Made by a program: the position numbers and the translations under genes. Source: Nitrospirota bacterium (lineage in GTDB: Bacteria > Nitrospirota > UBA9217). From it: 64,000 bases of DNA. The stretch lies in NCBI GenBank assembly GCA_963663225.1, contig OY760142.1:672001-736000 (forward strand), read 5' to 3'. The number at the start of each line of letters is the position of its first letter. Within the stretch, counting starts at the first letter, position 1. The notes below the pieces were generated by a model. The model made no database searches. It was given only the letters and a program-made list of their open reading frames with translations, and was not told where the DNA came from. Below, one piece after another: positions 1,335 to 46,392 of the stretch.

Positions 1335-4300
1335 ATGCCCTGGCTGCTCCCTTCTGTGATTGCCGCGTTCGTCGGCACCTTCGTTCTAACCATTGTTTAT
1401 TTTTATCTCTACACGCAGGATCGTCAGAAATTCCTCTTGATCTGGACCATCGGCTGGTTCATTTATCTCCTTCGCTATGGATTCATGCTGGTTATGACTC
1501 TGGCGGATGAAGCACTGTTCCTCAACGCAACATATCATCTGATGGCCCTGGCAAGCGGAGTACTGCTTCTCTGGGGAACTTCGCTTTTTATCGGCAAGCC
1601 CTTCAGCAAAACATGGCCGGCAGGGGCCGCTGTGATCGGTGCATGGACCGTGTTGTCCATTATACAAAACGCTCCATCCCTCATGGTGACGCTGCCTGAT
1701 TTTTTCTTCCTCGGCGCACTCTATATATGGAACGGGATACTATTATTACGCACGTACAAGAATCCTGAAGGAAAAGTCGTCGGTGGGACGTTTATTGTTT
1801 GGGGCCTGCATAAAATGGACTACCCGTTCATCCAGCCGGTCACTCAGCTTGCCCCTTGGGGATATCTGCTCTCGGCGATCATTGAACTGTCGGTGGCCAT
1901 CGGCATTCTGGTCGTTTATTTCAAAAAAATGAAGCAGCAGGTGGCTGAAGAGGAAGAACGGTTTAAATCGCTTTTTGAGAACAATTATATCGTCTCGATG
2001 ATTGTTGATCCGGAAAACGGACGCATTGTGGAAGCGAATGCTGCGGCATCAAAATTTTATGGATGGTCCCGCGAGCACTTAACGTCCATGAAAATTACTG
2101 ATATCAATACGCTGTCACCGGATGGAGTCCATGCAGAGCTGAAGGCGGCCAAAAACCACCAACAAAATCGCTTTTTGTTCAAACATCGCAGGGCTGACGG
2201 ATCTATCAGAGACGTTGAAGTTCACAGTGGTCCGATACAGATCCAAGGGAGGACAATCCTGCATTCAACCATCCATGACATCACCGACAGAAAGCGCATC
2301 GAAGACTCGCTCCGGCTGAATGAATTCCGTCTGGCCAGCCTTCTGGAATTGTCGGAAATGTCGGAAAAACCCGAGAAAGAGCTGACCAACTTCGCCTTGG
2401 AGAGGGCCATTGTCCTGACCAAAAGCATGATCGGCTATCTGGCTTTTCTGAACGCTGACGAAACGGTGCTTACAATGTATTCCTGGTCCCGTGTTGCAAT
2501 GCAGGACTGCCGCCTTCTTACGAAACCGATCGACTATCCGCTGACGACCTGCGGACTGTGGGGAGAAGCGGTGCGCCGGAGAAAAGCAGTCATCACAAAC
2601 GATTATCAGGCCCCGAATCCATCGAAAAAAGGGTATCCCGACGGCCATATTCAGATCAGACGCCACATGAACATTCCGCTCTTTGACGGGGACCGAATTG
2701 TTCTCGTCGCGGGCGTCGGCAATAAAGAAGATCCGTATGAAGAAGATGATGTCAAGCAGCTTACGCTGATGATGGACGGGATGTGGAAAATCCTGAAATC
2801 AAACCGGGCAGAGAAAGCGCTCTATGAAAGTGAAGAACGGTTTAAACGCCTCGTCCAAAACACCAGCGATTTAATAACGGTGCTGAACGAACGCGGCATA
2901 CAGATGTCTGTCAGCGGCCCCCTTGAAAAAATACTGGGATATGCGGAGAATGAACTGGTCGGTACCAGCTGTTTCGATCTGATCCACCCCGACAACCTGG
3001 ACTTCACCGTAAAAACGTTCGCCGAAATTGTCATGCAGCCAAGTGCCTCCCGCAGGCTTGAATTCCGCTGCCGTCATAAGAACGGAACCTGGGTGGCCAT
3101 GGAAGCCGTCGCGACCAACCTGCTTTACGACCCGATTGTAAAAGGAATCGTTGTAAACCTCCGGGATATTTCAGAACGAAACAAGTTCCAGGAGCAGCTT
3201 CAGCAGGCGATGAAAATGGAGGCGGTCGGACGGCTGGCTGGCGGGGTCGCGCACGATTTCAATAACCTGCTTACCGCCATCACGGGAAACATCGACCTGG
3301 CCAGGAGAGGACTCCCCGAATTCTGCAGCCTCTCCCCGTATTTGAACGAGGTGAACAAGGCCGCGGACAGCGCCGCTTCATTGACCCACCAGCTGCTTGC
3401 GTTTTCTCGCAAACAGATCATCGAGCCGAAAGTAATAAACTTGAACGCCCTAGTGAAAAATATCGAACAGATACTAGCCAGGATCCTGGGAGAGGACATT
3501 GAACTCCTGACGATTCCGGCCCCGGACCTGGGTTCGGTCAAAGTCGACCCCGGGCAATTTGAACAGGTGCTGATGAACCTTGCAGTCAATGCCCGGGATG
3601 CAATGCCGCACGGAGGCAAGCTCATCATTGAATCGTCCGACATCGTTCTGGATGAAAAATACTGTGCGGTCCATCCACAGGTAACGCCCGGCAAGTTTGT
3701 TCTACTTGTCGTAAGCGATACAGGGCAAGGGATGAATGAAGAAGTAAAAAAACGCCTCTTCGAACCGTTCTTCACCACAAAAGCCCTGGGACAGGGAACC
3801 GGCCTGGGCCTGGCGACCATTCTCGGCGTAATTGAACAGGCAGGCGGCAGCATCGAAGTATATTCGGAAATCGGCAAAGGGACAACGTTCAAAATCTATC
3901 TGCCGCACACCGGAGATGCTCCTGAAAAACCCGCTTCCGGCGTCTCGTCTCCGGACCTGCCCGCGGGAAGCGAAACGATTCTTGTCGTGGAAGATGATGC
4001 GGGCGTTCGTAAAGTCGCGCTGATGATTCTGGATGAGCTGGGGTACCGGCTGTTGCACGCATCCGACGGGCCTGAAGCCATCAGGCTGGCGGAAAGCCAT
4101 GCCGGACAGATTCACCTCTTAATGACTGATGTTGTCATGCCGGGAATGAACGGACGGGAGCTTTCAACGCGGCTGCTTAAGGACCGTCCGGATATGAAAG
4201 TGTTATTCACCTCCGGGTATACCGAAGATGTGATTGTACATCACGGTGTGATCGAAGCAGATCTGAATTTTATCAGTAAGCCCTATCATCCTCGGGCTCT

Positions 4301-34130: not shown

Positions 34131-35507
34131 TCATCCCACGACATTATACTCGCGAACGCGCAGTTTGACGCCGAGGCGCTCGGCAATCGCGCGACAGGCC
34201 GCAATATCCACTTCGGGAAGCGCCACTACGGTGACGGAAACATCCGGTACATACTCTTTTGCTTTGGCGATAAAATCCAGAACCGCGGCATATGTTCCCA
34301 TGCCAAAATGGGGCTGGGTTACCTTGTTATAAAGTTCTTCATTCTGGGCGTTCAGGCTGACGCTTACCGCATCGACAAGACCGGCAAGTTCCGGCAGAAT
34401 ATTGCGTTTATGGATCAGGTTCGCATGCCCGTTTGTGTCAATACGAACCCTGCCTCCCCTTCGCTTGACTTCCGCAGCCACGGTCTTGACAACATCAAGC
34501 CGCAAAAGCGGCTCGCCGTACCCGCAGAATACGATTTCCGCATACTTCGCGGGGTCGTTTATCTGCTTGATAATTTCCTCGGGTGTCGGTTCCTGGATCA
34601 AGCGGAGATTGTGCCCTTTTACGAAGTCGGTGGAATATCGCACGCAGAAAGTGCAGGCAGCCGTGCAGCGGTTCGTAATATTAAGATATAAAGAGTTCCG
34701 GATGGGATAGGTTATCAATCCCTGCCGGGAAATTACGCCAATGCCGAACAGCTGCATGGCATTATAACTCGTGATTCTCGCAACATCGTCCCGGGAAAGC
34801 CCCTTGATCAGCGCTATGGCCTCGGCTGTATGGGACACATATGCAGGCTCATTTCGTTTTCCGCGCTTCGGCTGCGGAGCAAGATATGGCGCGTCCGTTT
34901 CTATCAGCATATGCTCTATGGGTATCTGCCGCACCACTTCACGCAGCACGTCTGCTTTCGGGTATGTCACGGGTCCGGCAATGGAAATATGGAACCCCAT
35001 CTCAATTACTTTGCGTGCCATTGCCGGGTCGCCTGAAAAGCAGTGTATGACCCCGCCCAGGCCGGGGGACCATTCCTCGGAAAGAATTTGGAGCACGTCT
35101 TCATGAGCATCCCGATCGTGAATAATGACCGGAAGATTGAATGCGCGGGCCTCACGCAGCATGATGCGAAGCTGCTTTTTCTGATCCTCACGGGGCGAGT
35201 GTTCATAATAGTAATCAAGCCCAACTTCTCCATAAGCGACCACTTTCGGGTGCTGCGCAAGAACGCGCAACGTCTCGGAGGATTGCGGCGGAGCATCTTT
35301 AATATCGTGCGGATGGACGCCAACCGCAGCATAGACGCAATCATATTGTTCTGCAAGCGACACTGCTGCGCGGCTGGACTCCACTGTCGTTCCGATAGCA
35401 ACAATATACTCGACACCCGTTTCCCGTGCCCGTGCAATCACGGAGTCGCGATCGGCGTCAAATTCGTGCGCATCAAGATGCGCGTGGGTATCTATAAGCA
35501 TTGCCAT
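34131..35507 (-). CDS. TatD-family nuclease fused to a radical SAM domain
   Basis: IDTHAHL, GVHP, GEVGLDY, HDRDA, HCFSG, ETDAPY; C-terminal LYLNITNRCTAACTFC (CxxxCxxC), FCGYGEP, TNG. Confidence 0.93.
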   Translation of the reverse strand: MAMLIDTHAHLDAHEFDADRDSVIARARETGVEYIVAIGTTVESSRAAVSLAEQYDCVYAAVGVHPHDIKDAPPQSSETLRVLAQHPKVVAYGEVGLDYYYEHSPREDQKKQLRIMLREARAFNLPVIIHDRDAHEDVLQILSEEWSPGLGGVIHCFSGDPAMARKVIEMGFHISIAGPVTYPKADVLREVVRQIPIEHMLIETDAPYLAPQPKRGKRNEPAYVSHTAEAIALIKGLSRDDVARITSYNAMQLFGIGVISRQGLITYPIRNSLYLNITNRCTAACTFCVRYSTDFVKGHNLRLIQEPTPEEIIKQINDPAKYAEIVFCGYGEPLLRLDVVKTVAAEVKRRGGRVRIDTNGHANLIHKRNILPELAGLVDAVSVSLNAQNEELYNKVTQPHFGMGTYAAVLDFIAKAKEYVPDVSVTVVALPEVDIAACRAIAERLGVKLRVREYNVVG

Positions 35508-43178: not shown

Positions 43179-44681
43179 TCATGAACGCTTTTGCAATATA
43201 TTTCCGAATAGCTCTGCTTCTTTGATTACTTCAAAATATTTATCTGTTGGATCCGAATCCCCAGTTACAAGCGCGCCTACCTGTACATGCTTTTTCCCAT
43301 CCTTGACCGTGATGGTGGCGGAGGCAATATTGAAATCCATATCGCCATTATTAGAAAAGTATCCAACAACACCGGCAAACAGACCGCGAGTTGCAGGTTC
43401 AAGTTCACCAGGAATTTCCATGCAATGCGCTTCTGGATCATCCGTTCTCATCGCTCCCGAAAATGCCGCAGAGATGAGGTCAACACTATTTCTGCCTTGT
43501 TTTAGAACGCCTTGCATGGTCGAAGCCGTGCTGCATTTTTTGTCGGGACCGGTCCTTTCTCTTTTGTTTACAATGATACTGCCGGGGTTGAGCATGGCGC
43601 CCAAGCCGTTGTTTTCAGCATACCTGTGCACAATGGTATGGGCAGGCTGTTCTATGATTTTTCCCGCAGCACCACCTTGCGGATGTGTCATTGTCGGCAA
43701 TTTCACATCAACAATTCCATCATGACATCGCACAAGGCGGTCATGCGAAAAGCTTACGGTCTGCAGATCTTTAAAATCAAAATGCGCGACGGAAGACGAT
43801 GCATCGCTCTTGTGCAGTATCGTGTGCAGTTGAAGAACATCCTGAGAATCTGTCGCAGCCGAAAACCGCAGAGACACAGTCGGTCGGCAAAGGTTTCCTT
43901 TCAGAATGGAGTCTTTGCATCTTCTCACCCTGTTTTCAAATTCAGACCTGGTAAGATCGGGAATGAGCGGACCAGCATTTCTCGTATCGTCGCTGGCCGG
44001 GAAAACAGCCCGCATTTCTGTTTTCGACGCTTTCTCAAGTTTTTGGGCAACATCTGCAATCCGAGAAACTGCTTCATCATAGTACCGCTCACCTTGTTCA
44101 GGAGCGGGGCGTCGGAACCCCAGCTCCTGCTCGCGGGCTCCTGGGTTTACGATTATCCATGCCTTATCCCGGCTATGGTCAAAAGCAAGAACCATATCAA
44201 CGAAGGCAAAGTAGGTCTCCGGAATTTTGATGTCCGTTTTTGCACTACGCGATACAGCGCTATGCTGTCGTGCAAAATCATACGAAAAAAGACCTATGGC
44301 GCCGCCGGTGAAAGGTGGAAGGCCGGCAATGCGTTCGGTTTGATAATTTGACAGAAGTTCCTTTAGCTTTTCCAGCGGCTTACGCCTCATTGTCGCCCGT
44401 TTTCCATATTTACCTGCAGGCGTTTCAGGCAAGCTGATTTCTACTTCATCACCATATGATTTGAAGATAAGATATGGATTTTCCGACACGAAAGAGTATC
44501 TTTTTGCCTCCTTGCAATCCGGGATGCTTTCGAAAAATATGGAATATCCTTCCGAGCTCAAGGATTCAAGCGCCGAAATAGGCGTAAGCCCCGGAAAGCC
44601 GATCTCTGCGTAAATGGGCAGCATTATTCCCGTTTTGATGGAATTGAGAAAATCTATTTTTTGCGGCCTGAGTGTATGCAT
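43179..44681 (-). CDS. Degenerate anthranilate/ADC synthase component I homologue (probable pseudoenzyme)
   Basis: N-domain FFES, RYSF, PPFTGGAIG.FSYD intact; C-terminal chorismate/Mg motifs heavily substituted; promoter TTGACC-17-TAAAAT at 44721-44693. Confidence 0.8.
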   Translation of the reverse strand: MHTLRPQKIDFLNSIKTGIMLPIYAEIGFPGLTPISALESLSSEGYSIFFESIPDCKEAKRYSFVSENPYLIFKSYGDEVEISLPETPAGKYGKRATMRRKPLEKLKELLSNYQTERIAGLPPFTGGAIGLFSYDFARQHSAVSRSAKTDIKIPETYFAFVDMVLAFDHSRDKAWIIVNPGAREQELGFRRPAPEQGERYYDEAVSRIADVAQKLEKASKTEMRAVFPASDDTRNAGPLIPDLTRSEFENRVRRCKDSILKGNLCRPTVSLRFSAATDSQDVLQLHTILHKSDASSSVAHFDFKDLQTVSFSHDRLVRCHDGIVDVKLPTMTHPQGGAAGKIIEQPAHTIVHRYAENNGLGAMLNPGSIIVNKRERTGPDKKCSTASTMQGVLKQGRNSVDLISAAFSGAMRTDDPEAHCMEIPGELEPATRGLFAGVVGYFSNNGDMDFNIASATITVKDGKKHVQVGALVTGDSDPTDKYFEVIKEAELFGNILQKRS

Positions 44682-44736
44682 GGCTGGAAGGAATTTTAGT
44701 TGCAAACAAGAAGAGGGTCAAGATAATTCTATAAAA

Positions 44737-44765
44737 TTCACCTATCCTGAAAAATATGCTATACT
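44737..44765 (+). promoter_or_regulatory. sigma70 promoter driving the candidate ncRNA
   Basis: TTCACC (44737-42), 17 bp, TATACT (44760-65), with extended -10 TG at 44757-58. Confidence 0.65.
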
Positions 44766-44771
44766 ATAAGT

Positions 44772-45138
44772 AAGCTATTTCTTGCTGGATCGTAAGCTCT
44801 TTGAGAAGTTCAAGGGTTGTTGGGCGTTGCCGAACCATCACCGATAGGTGTACAGATGGTAACCCGTTATAAAGTGGAATAGGTACCGTTCTGGCGAATT
44901 ACCGAACCGGCAAGAGAGCTGCTAGTTGGGCAGTAACTCTCCCGGTTGTTTTACAGGTTTCCACCAGGACGGAAGAACTGAATGCCACTAAGCTTCGATT
45001 TCGTATAAGCGGGGAAGTTCTATATACACGAAGCTTCACAGGGTCTGCAGTGCGGAGCCGCAGAAGCAGGTTGTTCTTCCTGACAGCTGCCGAAGCTCAG
45101 CGGAATACCAATACAGGTTCGATGGCAACGCCTTTTTT
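44772..45138 (+). ncRNA. Candidate large structured non-coding RNA (unassigned family)
   Basis: No ORF >=60 aa; closing helix GGCGTTGCC/GGCAACGCC followed by T6; at least 6 nested internal helices; own promoter; the downstream gene has a separate promoter. Confidence 0.65.
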
Positions 45139-45202
45139 ATTGTGACATTAGAAGTGCACTAGAGCCGTTTCCCTACCTTAATAATTACCCCTCATCTTTT
45201 CC

Positions 45203-45231
45203 TCGACAAAATAACAGAAATATTTTACACT
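45203..45231 (+). promoter_or_regulatory. sigma70 promoter of the thioesterase-methyltransferase operon
   Basis: TCGACA-17-TACACT. Confidence 0.6.
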
Positions 45232-45274
45232 GGCTTAGTTTTTTCAAAACCTATCTTCTCCGAGACTAAACGAT

Positions 45275-45667
45275 ATGAACCATATCATGGAAATAAAAAT
45301 CTATTATGAAGACACGGATTGCGGAAATGTCGTATACTACGCAAATTATCTTCGCTACATGGAGCGGGCAAGAACCGAATACATGGCTGCCCGAGGATCA
45401 TCGATCAAAACGCTTATGGAGCAAGGATCGCTGTTCATGATCCTTCACGCAGAGGTTGATTATCGCTCACCCGCACATCTTGGTGACATCCTGGTTGTGG
45501 AAACCTGGGTTACGGAAACCACCGGTGCTACGATCACCTTCCAGCATACCATGAAAGAGAAAACAACAAACAGGCTTATCACGGAATGCAAGGCAACCGC
45601 CGTCTGTGTGGATGCAACCGGCAAACCAAAAAAAATCCCCCGCCAAGCACTGGAGAACCTGCGGTGA
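45275..45667 (+). CDS. YbgC/FadM-family acyl-CoA thioesterase (hotdog fold)
   Basis: YYEDTDCGNVVYYANYLRYMERARTE motif. Confidence 0.92.
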   Translation: MNHIMEIKIYYEDTDCGNVVYYANYLRYMERARTEYMAARGSSIKTLMEQGSLFMILHAEVDYRSPAHLGDILVVETWVTETTGATITFQHTMKEKTTNRLITECKATAVCVDATGKPKKIPRQALENLR

Positions 45668-46392
45668 AAGAAGCGATTGCCGACACCATCTCGCTACGAG
45701 GAGCCGGCATTGTATCAATTCTGCAGCCAAAAAAGGGGCATCGTTTCACGCTTGACAGCCTTCTGCTCGCTGATTTCTGTCGTGTTAAACCTCGCTACAA
45801 CGTGCTTGAGCCTGGTGCTGGAACTGGCATCATCTCCATCCTCCTCGCAAGAAAATTCGCACACATAAAAATTACCGCCGTCGAAATACAATCAACAATG
45901 GCGGAGCTTTGCCGTTTGAATATTACCCAAAACGGCCTTACTGACCGTATAACCCTCGTCGAACAACCCATCACGAATTTGCGGAATTTTTTTCATCCAT
46001 CATCCTTCGATCTTATTGTCGCCAATCCACCCTATTTTCGAACAGGCGCCGGAAAGCAAAGCCCTTCACCTGAACGCTTTTTTTCACGCCATGACCGATT
46101 CGCCTCTCTGGATGTATGGCTTGATCTTCGGTTTTTTTTAAAAAATAACGGCCGGTTTGTTCTCGTTTTTTCAGCGGATCGTTTCGCAGATGCTATCACC
46201 TCGCTTCGGGTTCGCGGTCTAGAACCCAAGTGCATACGCTTCGTTCACTCCCGGCAGGAAAAATCGGCGTACCTTGTTCTGATCGAAGCGGTAAAGGCTG
46301 CCGGAACAGGTCTTGCAGTGCTTCCCCCGCTGATTATTCATGCATGCGGTCAAAACTATTCAGAGGAAATGAAAGAGCTCTATGGTTTATAA
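45664..46392 (+). CDS. tRNA1(Val) A37 N6-methyltransferase-like (TrmN6/YfiC family)
   Basis: QPKKGHRFTLDSLLL, EPGAGTG, ANPPY; GTGA overlap start with SD GGAGA. Confidence 0.85.
   Translation: MKEAIADTISLRGAGIVSILQPKKGHRFTLDSLLLADFCRVKPRYNVLEPGAGTGIISILLARKFAHIKITAVEIQSTMAELCRLNITQNGLTDRITLVEQPITNLRNFFHPSSFDLIVANPPYFRTGAGKQSPSPERFFSRHDRFASLDVWLDLRFFLKNNGRFVLVFSADRFADAITSLRVRGLEPKCIRFVHSRQEKSAYLVLIEAVKAAGTGLAVLPPLIIHACGQNYSEEMKELYGL

Follow-up and report, generated by a model that had tools for sequence, protein, structure and literature searches.

Can an intergenic region that looks empty in current annotations hold a large, elaborately folded RNA? We addressed this question for a gap in a 64,000-nucleotide (nt) stretch of DNA from an uncultured Nitrospirota bacterium (positions 672,001 to 736,000 of contig OY760142.1, GenBank assembly GCA_963663225.1), hereafter the window. 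A sequence-only reading of the window had proposed that positions 44772-45138 encode a stand-alone structured RNA of ~310-370 nt with its own promoter and U-tract. Conservation, covariation and transcripts, which that reading had named as points that could refute it, all support this proposal. We conclude that 44772-45138 (+ strand) encodes, as a gene of its own, a highly structured non-coding RNA (ncRNA) whose family lies outside Rfam 15.

The gap is bounded by an open reading frame (ORF) on the - strand that ends at 44705 and an ORF on the + strand that starts at 45275. As the sequence-only reading had noted, no ORF of at least 60 amino acids (aa) lies between them – the largest are 51 and 46 aa – and the centre of the gap is GC-richer than its surroundings (0.46-0.53 over 44800-45150, compared to 0.31-0.42 in both flanks). 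We rejected a protein-coding gene or small ORF as the explanation for the conserved region: the longest frames in 59 homologues are 30-86 aa, on either strand and at differing positions.

We compared the region to known RNA families. All 4227 models of Rfam 15 gave no match at gathering score across the whole 64-kb window, which includes the absence of any tRNA, riboswitch or leader match. This agrees with the earlier failure to recognize RNase P RNA, tmRNA, signal recognition particle (SRP) RNA, 6S RNA, a T-box or a group I/II intron from the letters, and the novelty of the RNA stands. A permissive Rfam scan (E<=10) of 44600-45300 returned just two matches, both at chance level (E = 3 and 9.4), and 15 diverse homologous loci returned five chance-level matches, with no family recurring at the RNA across loci. 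Matches to RF02053 (E 0.96) and RF00506 (E 10) lie on the RNA strand at positions 2990-3151 of one homologous locus (L241), where they overlap the 3' end of a single copy. OLE, GOLLD, ROOL, HEARO, raiA, riboswitch, ribozyme, T-box and group I/II intron models of Rfam 15 gave no significant recurring match, and the RNase P model had no match at E<=10 on 44600-45300 or on the 15 homologous loci.

The source genome is a single contig of 3,255,001 bases and 98.99% complete, and its standard stable RNAs are found elsewhere: RNase P RNA (RF00010, G000:C1:1140699-1141069, 280.5 bits, full length over positions 1-367), SRP RNA (RF00169, G000:C1:1207865-1207964, 68.9 bits), 6S RNA (RF00013, G000:C1:1011616-1011797, 101.1 bits) and tmRNA (RF00023, G000:C1:1634374-1634725, 199.5 bits). 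With no model match at the gap and the true loci elsewhere, we rejected the possibility that the RNA is the genome's RNase P, SRP, 6S or tmRNA. A Y RNA of the Ro (Rsr) system was ruled out by the lack of any TROVE/Ro (PF05731) match in this 98.99% complete genome. Within the literature searched, we found no description of such an RNA, and the terms 'Nitrospir', 'Thermodesulfovibrio' and 'Leptospirillum' have no occurrence in PMC8632094. We thus regard the RNA as a candidate new class of large bacterial RNA, with the caveat that a 'large structured bacterial ncRNA of unknown function' is an already known sort of discovery.

Secondary structure and covariation

Homologues delimit the RNA. Within the same family, a BLAST search with 44772-45145 matched 30 of 36 other genomes; it matched none of 24 genomes from 11 other families. 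The source genome has one copy. The full-length alignments (L001-L015, L017) start at query position 51-52 and mostly end at 366-372, positions that correspond to the closing helix (P1) and the U-tract. We built a covariance model, R1, from 29 of 33 sequences, which were re-aligned (L018, L019b, L025c and L029 were dropped); the model has 314 positions and 95 base pairs. The 310-nt RNA core of the window (44823..45132, +) is a full match to R1 at 268.6 bits.

Single-sequence folding gave -128.4 kcal/mol for the + strand (z -2.6 relative to shuffles) and a z of -4.2 for the - strand. Because the fold energy is only mildly better than that of shuffled sequences, the case for structure rests on comparative data. 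In an alignment fitted to R1 (60 distinct sequences, 58 of them full-length and two partial antisense rows), standard pairs make up 87.5% of the pair cells, compared to 32-43% when partners are slid by 1-3 columns. Double changes are present in 82 of 95 pairs, a number reached by none of 500 shuffles (47.6±3.0), and the covariation score is 0.299, compared to 0.04-0.08 for slid partners.

Since this alignment was fitted to the model, we repeated the pair counts on a structure-blind MAFFT alignment. Here 84.3% of cells are paired (31-43% slid), double changes occur in 58 of 95 pairs (33.3±2.9 shuffled, with 0 of 500 shuffles reaching the observed count, and 24-35 slid) and the covariation score is 0.237 (0.04-0.09 slid). 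Covariation among relatives therefore exceeds shuffles in both alignments. RNAalifold recovered only 35 pairs from the raw MAFFT alignment, as the variable arms are misaligned there, and was replaced by a consensus of per-sequence pair probabilities combined with R1. G-U plus U-G cells outnumber A-C plus C-A cells by 398 to 173 when the RNA is read from the + strand. This excess, which bears out the strand preference that the sequence-only reading had drawn from its wobble pairs, fixes the + strand together with the promoter and the U-tract.

The core comprises about 15 helices, with two multi-helix domains on a three-way junction. It is closed by P1 (44823-31 / 45124-32), a 9-bp helix formed by GGCGTTGCC and GGCAACGCC (RNA 5' strand GGCGUUGCC), and by P1b (GAACC/GGTTC, 44832-36 / 45116-20), which is set off by a 3-nt bulge on the 3' strand (45121-23). 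Both stems and the T6 run after them had been recognized in the window and are conserved in relatives. Among the 58 full-length sequences, which include a second form of the RNA described below, none of the nine P1 pairs is doubly changed, compared to 82 of the 86 other pairs, among them four of the five pairs of P1b. This pattern indicates that the base identities of P1, and not its pairing alone, are under selection.

The P2 hairpin, (U)CACC-GAUA-GGUG(U), at 44838..44851, is present in both alignments. P3 (GGUA/UACC, 44858-61 / 45106-09) is 75% paired and shifts register between clades, and P4 (CCGUU/AGCGG, 44864-68 / 45099-45103) is 95% paired and opens into the three-way junction that bears domains 2 and 3. 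Domain 2 (44874..44988) consists of P5, P6, a long irregular arm and a capped hairpin. P5 (GUGG/CCAC, 44874-77 / 44985-88) was corrected by eye; the variants GGGG/CCCC, GUGG/CCAC and GGAGC/GCUCC occur in this domain of the alignment. P6 (GGU/ACU) pairs 44882-84 with 44977-79, the long arm spans 44886-44903 / 44956-44972, and the hairpin (44905-44922 / 44930-44947) carries a conserved 7-nt loop, UAGUUGG in the window and AAGUUGA in the consensus.

Domain 3 (44991..45097) consists of P9, P10, P12 and P13. P9, AGCUUCG(AU)/(GC)CGAAGCU, joins 44991-99 to 45089-97, with AAGCUUCG pairing with CGAAGCU at 45091-97. P10 (CGGGGA/UUCCUG, 45010-15 / 45077-82) and P12 (GCUUC/GAAGC, 45033-37 / 45063-67) are followed by P13 (GGGUCUGC/GCGGAGCC, 45041-48 / 45052-59), which has a conserved G-G mismatch. 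Invariant nucleotides concentrate in the junctions and internal loops. A mutual-information scan over all variable column pairs ranked the model pairs highest, with no pseudoknot or contact between loops standing out. Non-model pairs in the scan resemble clade effects, except for the P13 G-G mismatch, which changes to U-A.

These data divide the folding drawing of the sequence-only reading into two parts. Its closing helices and 5' domain hold up: CACC-GATA-GGTG, CCGTTCTGG/CCAGGACGG, AACCGG/CCGGTT, GAGAG/CTCTC and CTGC/GCAG are all conserved with covariation. Six other helices, mostly in the 3' domain, do not. The pairing of GGAAGAAC with GTTCTTCC is 47-78% paired with almost no covariation, and the suggested pseudoknot GTGGAA/TTCCAC is 49% paired, with GUGG pairing instead with the CCAC at 44985-88. 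ACCATC/GATGGT, AAGCTTCG/CGAAGCTT, GTATA/TATAC and CTGC..TGCG-GAGC-CGCA..GCAG are jointly 59.2% paired, and none of five measures for them beats shuffles. In the 3' domain, the pairings of P9 (AAGCUUCG with CGAAGCU), P12 and P13 take the place of the drawn helices.

Transcription unit and expression

A promoter scan recovered the promoter that had been picked out by eye, TTCACC separated by a 17-nt spacer from a TG-extended TATACT (44737..44765, +). An extended -10 element (TGnTAnnnT) is present in 49 of 50 genomes, where it ends 43-72 nt (median 57) 5' of P1. Between promoter and core lies a 5' leader of ~50 nt (44772..44822, +) that includes a conserved TCTTTGA at 44798-44804 and a GTTC-like word immediately 5' of P1. 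The TCTTT(GA) motif is likewise found in 49 of 50 genomes, 22-36 nt 5' of P1. At the other end, a U6 tract (45133..45138, +) directly follows P1, and a T-rich tail after P1 is present in 50 of 50 genomes. From the positions of the -10 element, the leader motif and the T-tail, the primary transcript should start near 44772, carry a ~50-nt leader and end in the U-tract.

P1, P1b and U6 together look like an intrinsic terminator that has a structured insert of ~280 nt in its loop. A simple terminator scan misses this arrangement, as its loop limit is 8 nt. The next gene has a separate promoter-like site at 45203-45231, found by the promoter scan at the place given in the sequence-only reading.

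In the 49 relatives with the TCTTTGA motif, a hairpin of variable sequence usually lies upstream of it. The GTTC-like word next to P1 duplicates the 3' strand of P1b, which would allow an alternative pairing with GAACC. The leader motif might serve in processing, assist folding or act as an attenuator. The leader is probably absent from the mature RNA by removal, as discussed below for the second form.

Upstream sequences of many relatives, across genera, share a 15-nt block, GGTCAAGAYAATTCT, at 44716..44730 in the window. On the - strand the block contains TTGACC, the -35-like hexamer of a divergent TrpE-like gene (promoter-like site 44721..44693, -). Relative to the predicted RNA start it lies at about -57 to -43, a location suited to an UP element or an activator site for the RNA promoter, and it may have such a role.

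Transcripts of the core are present in RNA libraries from the environment. In 18 RNA-labelled runs from 11 studies we found 16-32% of the sampled 31-mers of 44760-45150, with runs holding less than 0.2 of the words (X14-X20) counted as no evidence. We then mapped contigs on 44300-45700 for four metatranscriptome runs, each from a different study (run labels metagenome, outdoor, sludge and wastewater). Six contig pieces were found, all within 44823-45129, and no contig covers 44300-44816 or 45146-45700. The deepest is 300 nt long (44828-45127), has a word depth of 283.8 in a run of 25 million letters and is without the leader. A contig change at the pair 44888/44970 from G-C to U-G keeps the pairing. 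No joints indicative of a circular form are present in the mapped contigs, which are a weak test of circularity. The contigs are good evidence that the core is transcribed; they hint only weakly at high abundance and at loss of the leader.

Distribution, second form and gene neighbourhood

We used R1 to define the spread of the family. The window's order holds a single family, and the RNA is present in 62 of its 64 genomes and in 19 of 19 genera, including all 32 genomes with at least 90% completeness and at most 5% contamination; the two genomes without a match have a completeness of 71% and 68%. When the phylum was sampled evenly, the RNA was present in 27 of 27 genomes of the family and in 0 of 123 genomes from 21 other families. 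This phylum search used R1 only, which still picks up the divergent form within the order, down to 27.9 bits.

Two pattern searches extend beyond the phylum sample. A pattern based on the invariant ends, run on one genome per species (~185,000 species), hit 118 stretches; among the 80 listed, R1 confirms 32, all titled Nitrospirota, Nitrospirae, Nitrospiria or Nitrospiraceae, and the other 48 score at most 22 bits. A motif pattern run on metagenome contigs hit 50 stretches, of which R1 confirms 46, with scores of at least 130 bits for 33 of them and of 49-79 bits for the other 13; the remaining loci (L254, L267, L270 and L295) were not matched by R1 at E<=1e-5 under default filters. Within the reach of these searches, the RNA family is confined to one order, comprising a single family, of uncultured Nitrospirota.

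About 19 of the 64 order genomes encode a second, more divergent form, detected as extra full-length R1 matches at 28-81 bits. The 23 copies that we analyzed keep P1, P2, the junction words CCGUUGAGGG, GGAAAGCNGAAAGCCCC and GGUUCAACGGAAU and the overall architecture. In 18 of 23 copies, the -10 element of their promoter, TTGACA-17-TGTGGTATAnT, ends 6-9 nt short of the first G of P1, which places the predicted transcription start on that G. In the aligned copies no U-run follows P1, and a separate GC-rich terminator hairpin lies ~25 nt downstream. Because both forms converge on an RNA that begins at P1, we infer that the leader of the main form is trimmed.

Sequence of ~95 nt upstream of the second form is also conserved among the aligned copies. 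We rejected it as a possible gene start, since, one frame of 197 aa aside, it yielded only variable frames of 15-61 aa. The second form (L229-L248, L084) has the appearance of a ~520-nt cassette composed of this upstream block, the promoter, the RNA and its own terminator hairpin, and the word CGTT(T)CCCT(A)CATC recurs on either side. Its gene neighbours are unrelated from locus to locus, with no recurrent protein among them; they include PAS-GGDEF-EAL proteins, a hybrid kinase, a sigma-54 activator, an IS110 transposase (an IS110-family gene adjoining one copy, L234 1208-2551) and RtcB with archease. The last of these is found at one of the 23 copies, where the RNA (L241 3038-3327, -) is directly beside rtcB (1500-2930) and an archease gene (906-1436). 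This placement recalls RtcB-linked RNAs in other bacteria; the source genome's own rtcB is far from the window.

Some genomes carry up to five copies of the RNA, including three in tandem. In the tandem arrays (L025 547-1741, L110 3689-4883) the copies, a divergent one together with two of the main form, are ~90-170 nt apart and each has a promoter-like site and a T-tail. In another genome, 3 kb separates a pair of main-form copies.

The main form is found next to a particular gene. Its divergent neighbour (43179..44705, -) encodes a 508-aa protein that Pfam and NCBIfam models identify as a degenerate third paralogue of the TrpE/PabB chorismate-binding proteins. It scores 191.8 bits with TIGR00564 (cut-off 517.7) and 89.9-91.6 bits with Chorismate_bind, for which two better TrpE/PabB paralogues elsewhere in the genome score 323.5 and 270.5 bits; it may not be an anthranilate synthase. 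The gene heads a - strand run of housekeeping genes (an AAA_23 ATPase, tmk, holB, a PSP1 protein, metG and tatD). Divergent and 120-150 nt upstream of the RNA, it is present in 49 of 50 genomes, with proteins 40-55% identical across them, and likewise in all 24 metagenome contigs that extend at least 450 nt upstream. Downstream on the + strand lie genes for a YbgC-type thioesterase and a TrmN-like methyltransferase, which follow the RNA in only ~23 of 50 genomes.

TrpE-like orthologues with 30-38% identity are encoded in several other Nitrospirota families. We searched beside 20 of them, from 10 other families, using R1 with filters off, and nothing exceeded 10 bits. A co-directional ORF usually abuts these genes, and none has the thioesterase or methyltransferase beside it. 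Since these orthologues lack the RNA, the protein does not depend on it. The RNA gene thus appears, from this distribution, to have arisen or landed at the TrpE-like site in the ancestor of the order and then stayed.

Two further features of the window concern its protein-coding genes. In a 458-aa ORF at 34131-35507 (-), a TatD DNase domain (residues 5-255) is fused, unusually, to a radical SAM domain (residues 275-442). When called from their first start codons, the thioesterase (45275-45667, +) and methyltransferase (45586-46392, +) ORFs share 82 nt, and the true methyltransferase start is probably further downstream.

Function of the RNA

We next considered what the RNA does. Taken as a whole, the explanation that we narrowly lean towards is a stand-alone structured RNA of a new family that acts in trans, with a ribonucleoprotein (RNP) scaffold as the preferred mechanism; the scaffold mechanism on its own is a tentative proposal that we consider somewhat short of probable. 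According to this model, the main form would terminate at P1/P1b and U6 and its leader would be trimmed, such that both forms would yield an RNA of ~310 nt with its two ends held together in P1. The RNA would act in trans as an abundant, stable, housekeeping-type molecule that scaffolds an RNP. Candidate protein partner(s) would read the base identities of P1 and also the purine-rich junctions and internal loops (CCGUU-A/UNAG-GGGG, GGAAGAGCCGAA, GGCUCAACGGAAU). The trans-acting, housekeeping-like role is suggested by universality in the order, a single-copy stable site by core genes, a strong promoter and apparent abundance, and the scaffold is preferred since an invariant P1 and purine-rich loop words are features that proteins and processing enzymes read.

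Several points weigh against this reading. The single-sequence fold energy of the + strand is unremarkable, and the model-fitted alignment leans towards its own structure. The transcript contigs are 95-99% identical to the window and so come from close relatives rather than demonstrably from this organism, and one low-depth contig has 27 bases of the leader, starting at CTTTGA. Logan contigs cannot reliably show RNA ends, strand or level, which limits them to weak hints of leader removal and abundance. The RNP mechanism is drawn from RNA anatomy, with its partner, ligand or target hypothetical. An invariant P1 might instead be required for processing or termination or as a signal in the DNA, and the almost constant proximity of the TrpE-like gene might reflect local regulation rather than a general role.

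This last possibility – that the RNA regulates the divergent TrpE/PabB-like operon or is co-regulated with it via the shared back-to-back promoter region – strikes us as unlikely. The adjacency in 49 of 50 genomes and 24 of 24 contigs persists despite the modest protein identity, the downstream genes are kept in only about half of loci and the 15-nt block between the two promoters is conserved, but overlapping promoters alone can keep genes linked. In addition, the orthologues at 20 loci of 10 other families lack the RNA, the second form and the extra main-form copies sit away from any TrpE-like gene, and 310 nt, 15 helices and a high apparent level exceed the usual needs of a local regulator. 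We attach far less weight still, indeed almost none, to a cis-acting leader or riboswitch for the thioesterase and methyltransferase genes. The RNA is upstream of and co-oriented with these genes in the window, but their retention in ~23 of 50 genomes, a U-tract terminator that is constitutive in form and universal (50 of 50), and RNA contigs that stop at the core led us to disfavour this candidate; the next gene's own promoter-like site and the lack of a match to any riboswitch family also speak against it. A small mobile cassette, with P1 as a terminal inverted repeat that serves recombination, would account for ends that form a perfect, sequence-invariant inverted repeat, for genomes with up to five copies, three of them in tandem, for a second form that has its ~95-nt upstream block and terminator among unrelated genes and for the IS110-family transposase that adjoins one copy. 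We nevertheless deem it highly improbable: most genomes have just one main-form copy, at a shared syntenic site (syntenic in 49 of 50), compensatory changes in 82 of 95 pairs denote selection on the RNA fold, promoter and terminator are conserved, and no transposase or recombinase recurs beside the RNA. We rejected a miniature mobile element for the main form on this basis, and the varied contexts of the second form leave only that form as a candidate.

Other alternatives share the trans-acting role and differ in mechanism. An RNA that works alone, as a ribozyme or a self-assembling RNA-only particle in which the junction nucleotides are the active site or make tertiary or quaternary contacts, is a minority possibility that we rate on a par with the tie to the TrpE-like operon. 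Its size of ~310 nt, multiple domains and invariant junction and internal-loop nucleotides are typical of elaborate tertiary structure, the main-form leader needs some agent of removal, and RNA-only homo-oligomers are reported for GOLLD, ROOL and OLE (PMC12286853). However, no known ribozyme family of Rfam 15 matches and no candidate pseudoknot or loop-loop pairing emerged among the non-model column pairs. The second form is without a leader, and self-cleavage of the leader therefore cannot be the core function. A protein decoy – a functional analogue of 6S RNA or Ms1 RNA that is unrelated to either – would fit the apparent abundance, near-universal presence in the order and strong consensus-like promoter, and paralogous forms could be expressed differently. 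We judge a decoy to be improbable, more so than an RNA that works alone, given that a bona fide 6S RNA is encoded elsewhere in the genome, that the fold is branched, whereas 6S RNA is a rod with a central bubble, and that the consensus shows no sign of short, repeated binding motifs like those of sponge RNAs.

Comparison to known RNAs places the RNP scaffold and these alternatives in context. Large, ornate bacterial ncRNAs include OLE, GOLLD and ROOL (PMC12286853) and the raiA motif RNA (PMC11706538). Like these, the Nitrospirota RNA has a stand-alone gene, a long multi-domain structure, strong covariation, a restricted lineage and apparent abundance, and was discovered by comparative sequence analysis ahead of function. 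Unlike them, it has a Nitrospirota host, a length of ~310 nt, no similarity to any family modelled in Rfam 15, a closing helix of invariant sequence that is also the putative terminator stem and no associated protein genes seen beside it. They are analogues in kind, not relatives.

Housekeeping RNAs offer other parallels. The putative abundant, trans-acting role, the strong promoter, the near-universal presence in a group and the occasional paralogues are shared with 6S RNA (RF00013), although the RNA has no RF00013 match and a branched rather than rod-like fold, and the true 6S RNA, at 101.1 bits, is elsewhere. It is in a similar size class to RNase P RNA (RF00010), and its 5' and 3' ends are paired in a closing helix, as in RNase P and SRP RNA. 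4.5S RNA is matured from a precursor with a 5' leader, and the main form probably undergoes a similar maturation. The conserved blocks of the RNase P and SRP families, however, are not seen by eye in the consensus, in addition to the lack of a model match. Bacterial Y RNAs are bound by Ro/Rsr at a terminal helix whose sequence is conserved. The Nitrospirota RNA resembles them in a terminal helix that is formed by both RNA ends and conserved in sequence, not merely in pairing, but it is several times larger and its genome has no TROVE/Ro gene.

Bacterial RNAs so long, intricate and conserved are rare, and those with known jobs are ribozymes, RNP cores or global regulators. That the RNA joins RNase P, SRP, 6S and tmRNA as a fifth 'core' stable RNA – a ~310-nt RNP RNA or ribozyme of one Nitrospirota order, universal there, highly expressed in sludge and wastewater and endowed with a paralogous second form – is plausible, though in our view it stops just short of being the probable outcome. 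Should the RNA prove to have a catalytic fold or form an RNA-only particle, it would be a new member of a very short list of large functional bacterial RNAs. The covariation-backed structure, R1 and the ~100 sequences gathered here are a basis for structural work, pull-downs and an Rfam submission. Recognizing the RNA gene would remove an 'empty' intergenic region of ~590 bp from the annotations of these genomes, and a new class limited to an order of uncultured Nitrospirota points to lineage-specific biochemistry that is invisible to protein-centred annotation.

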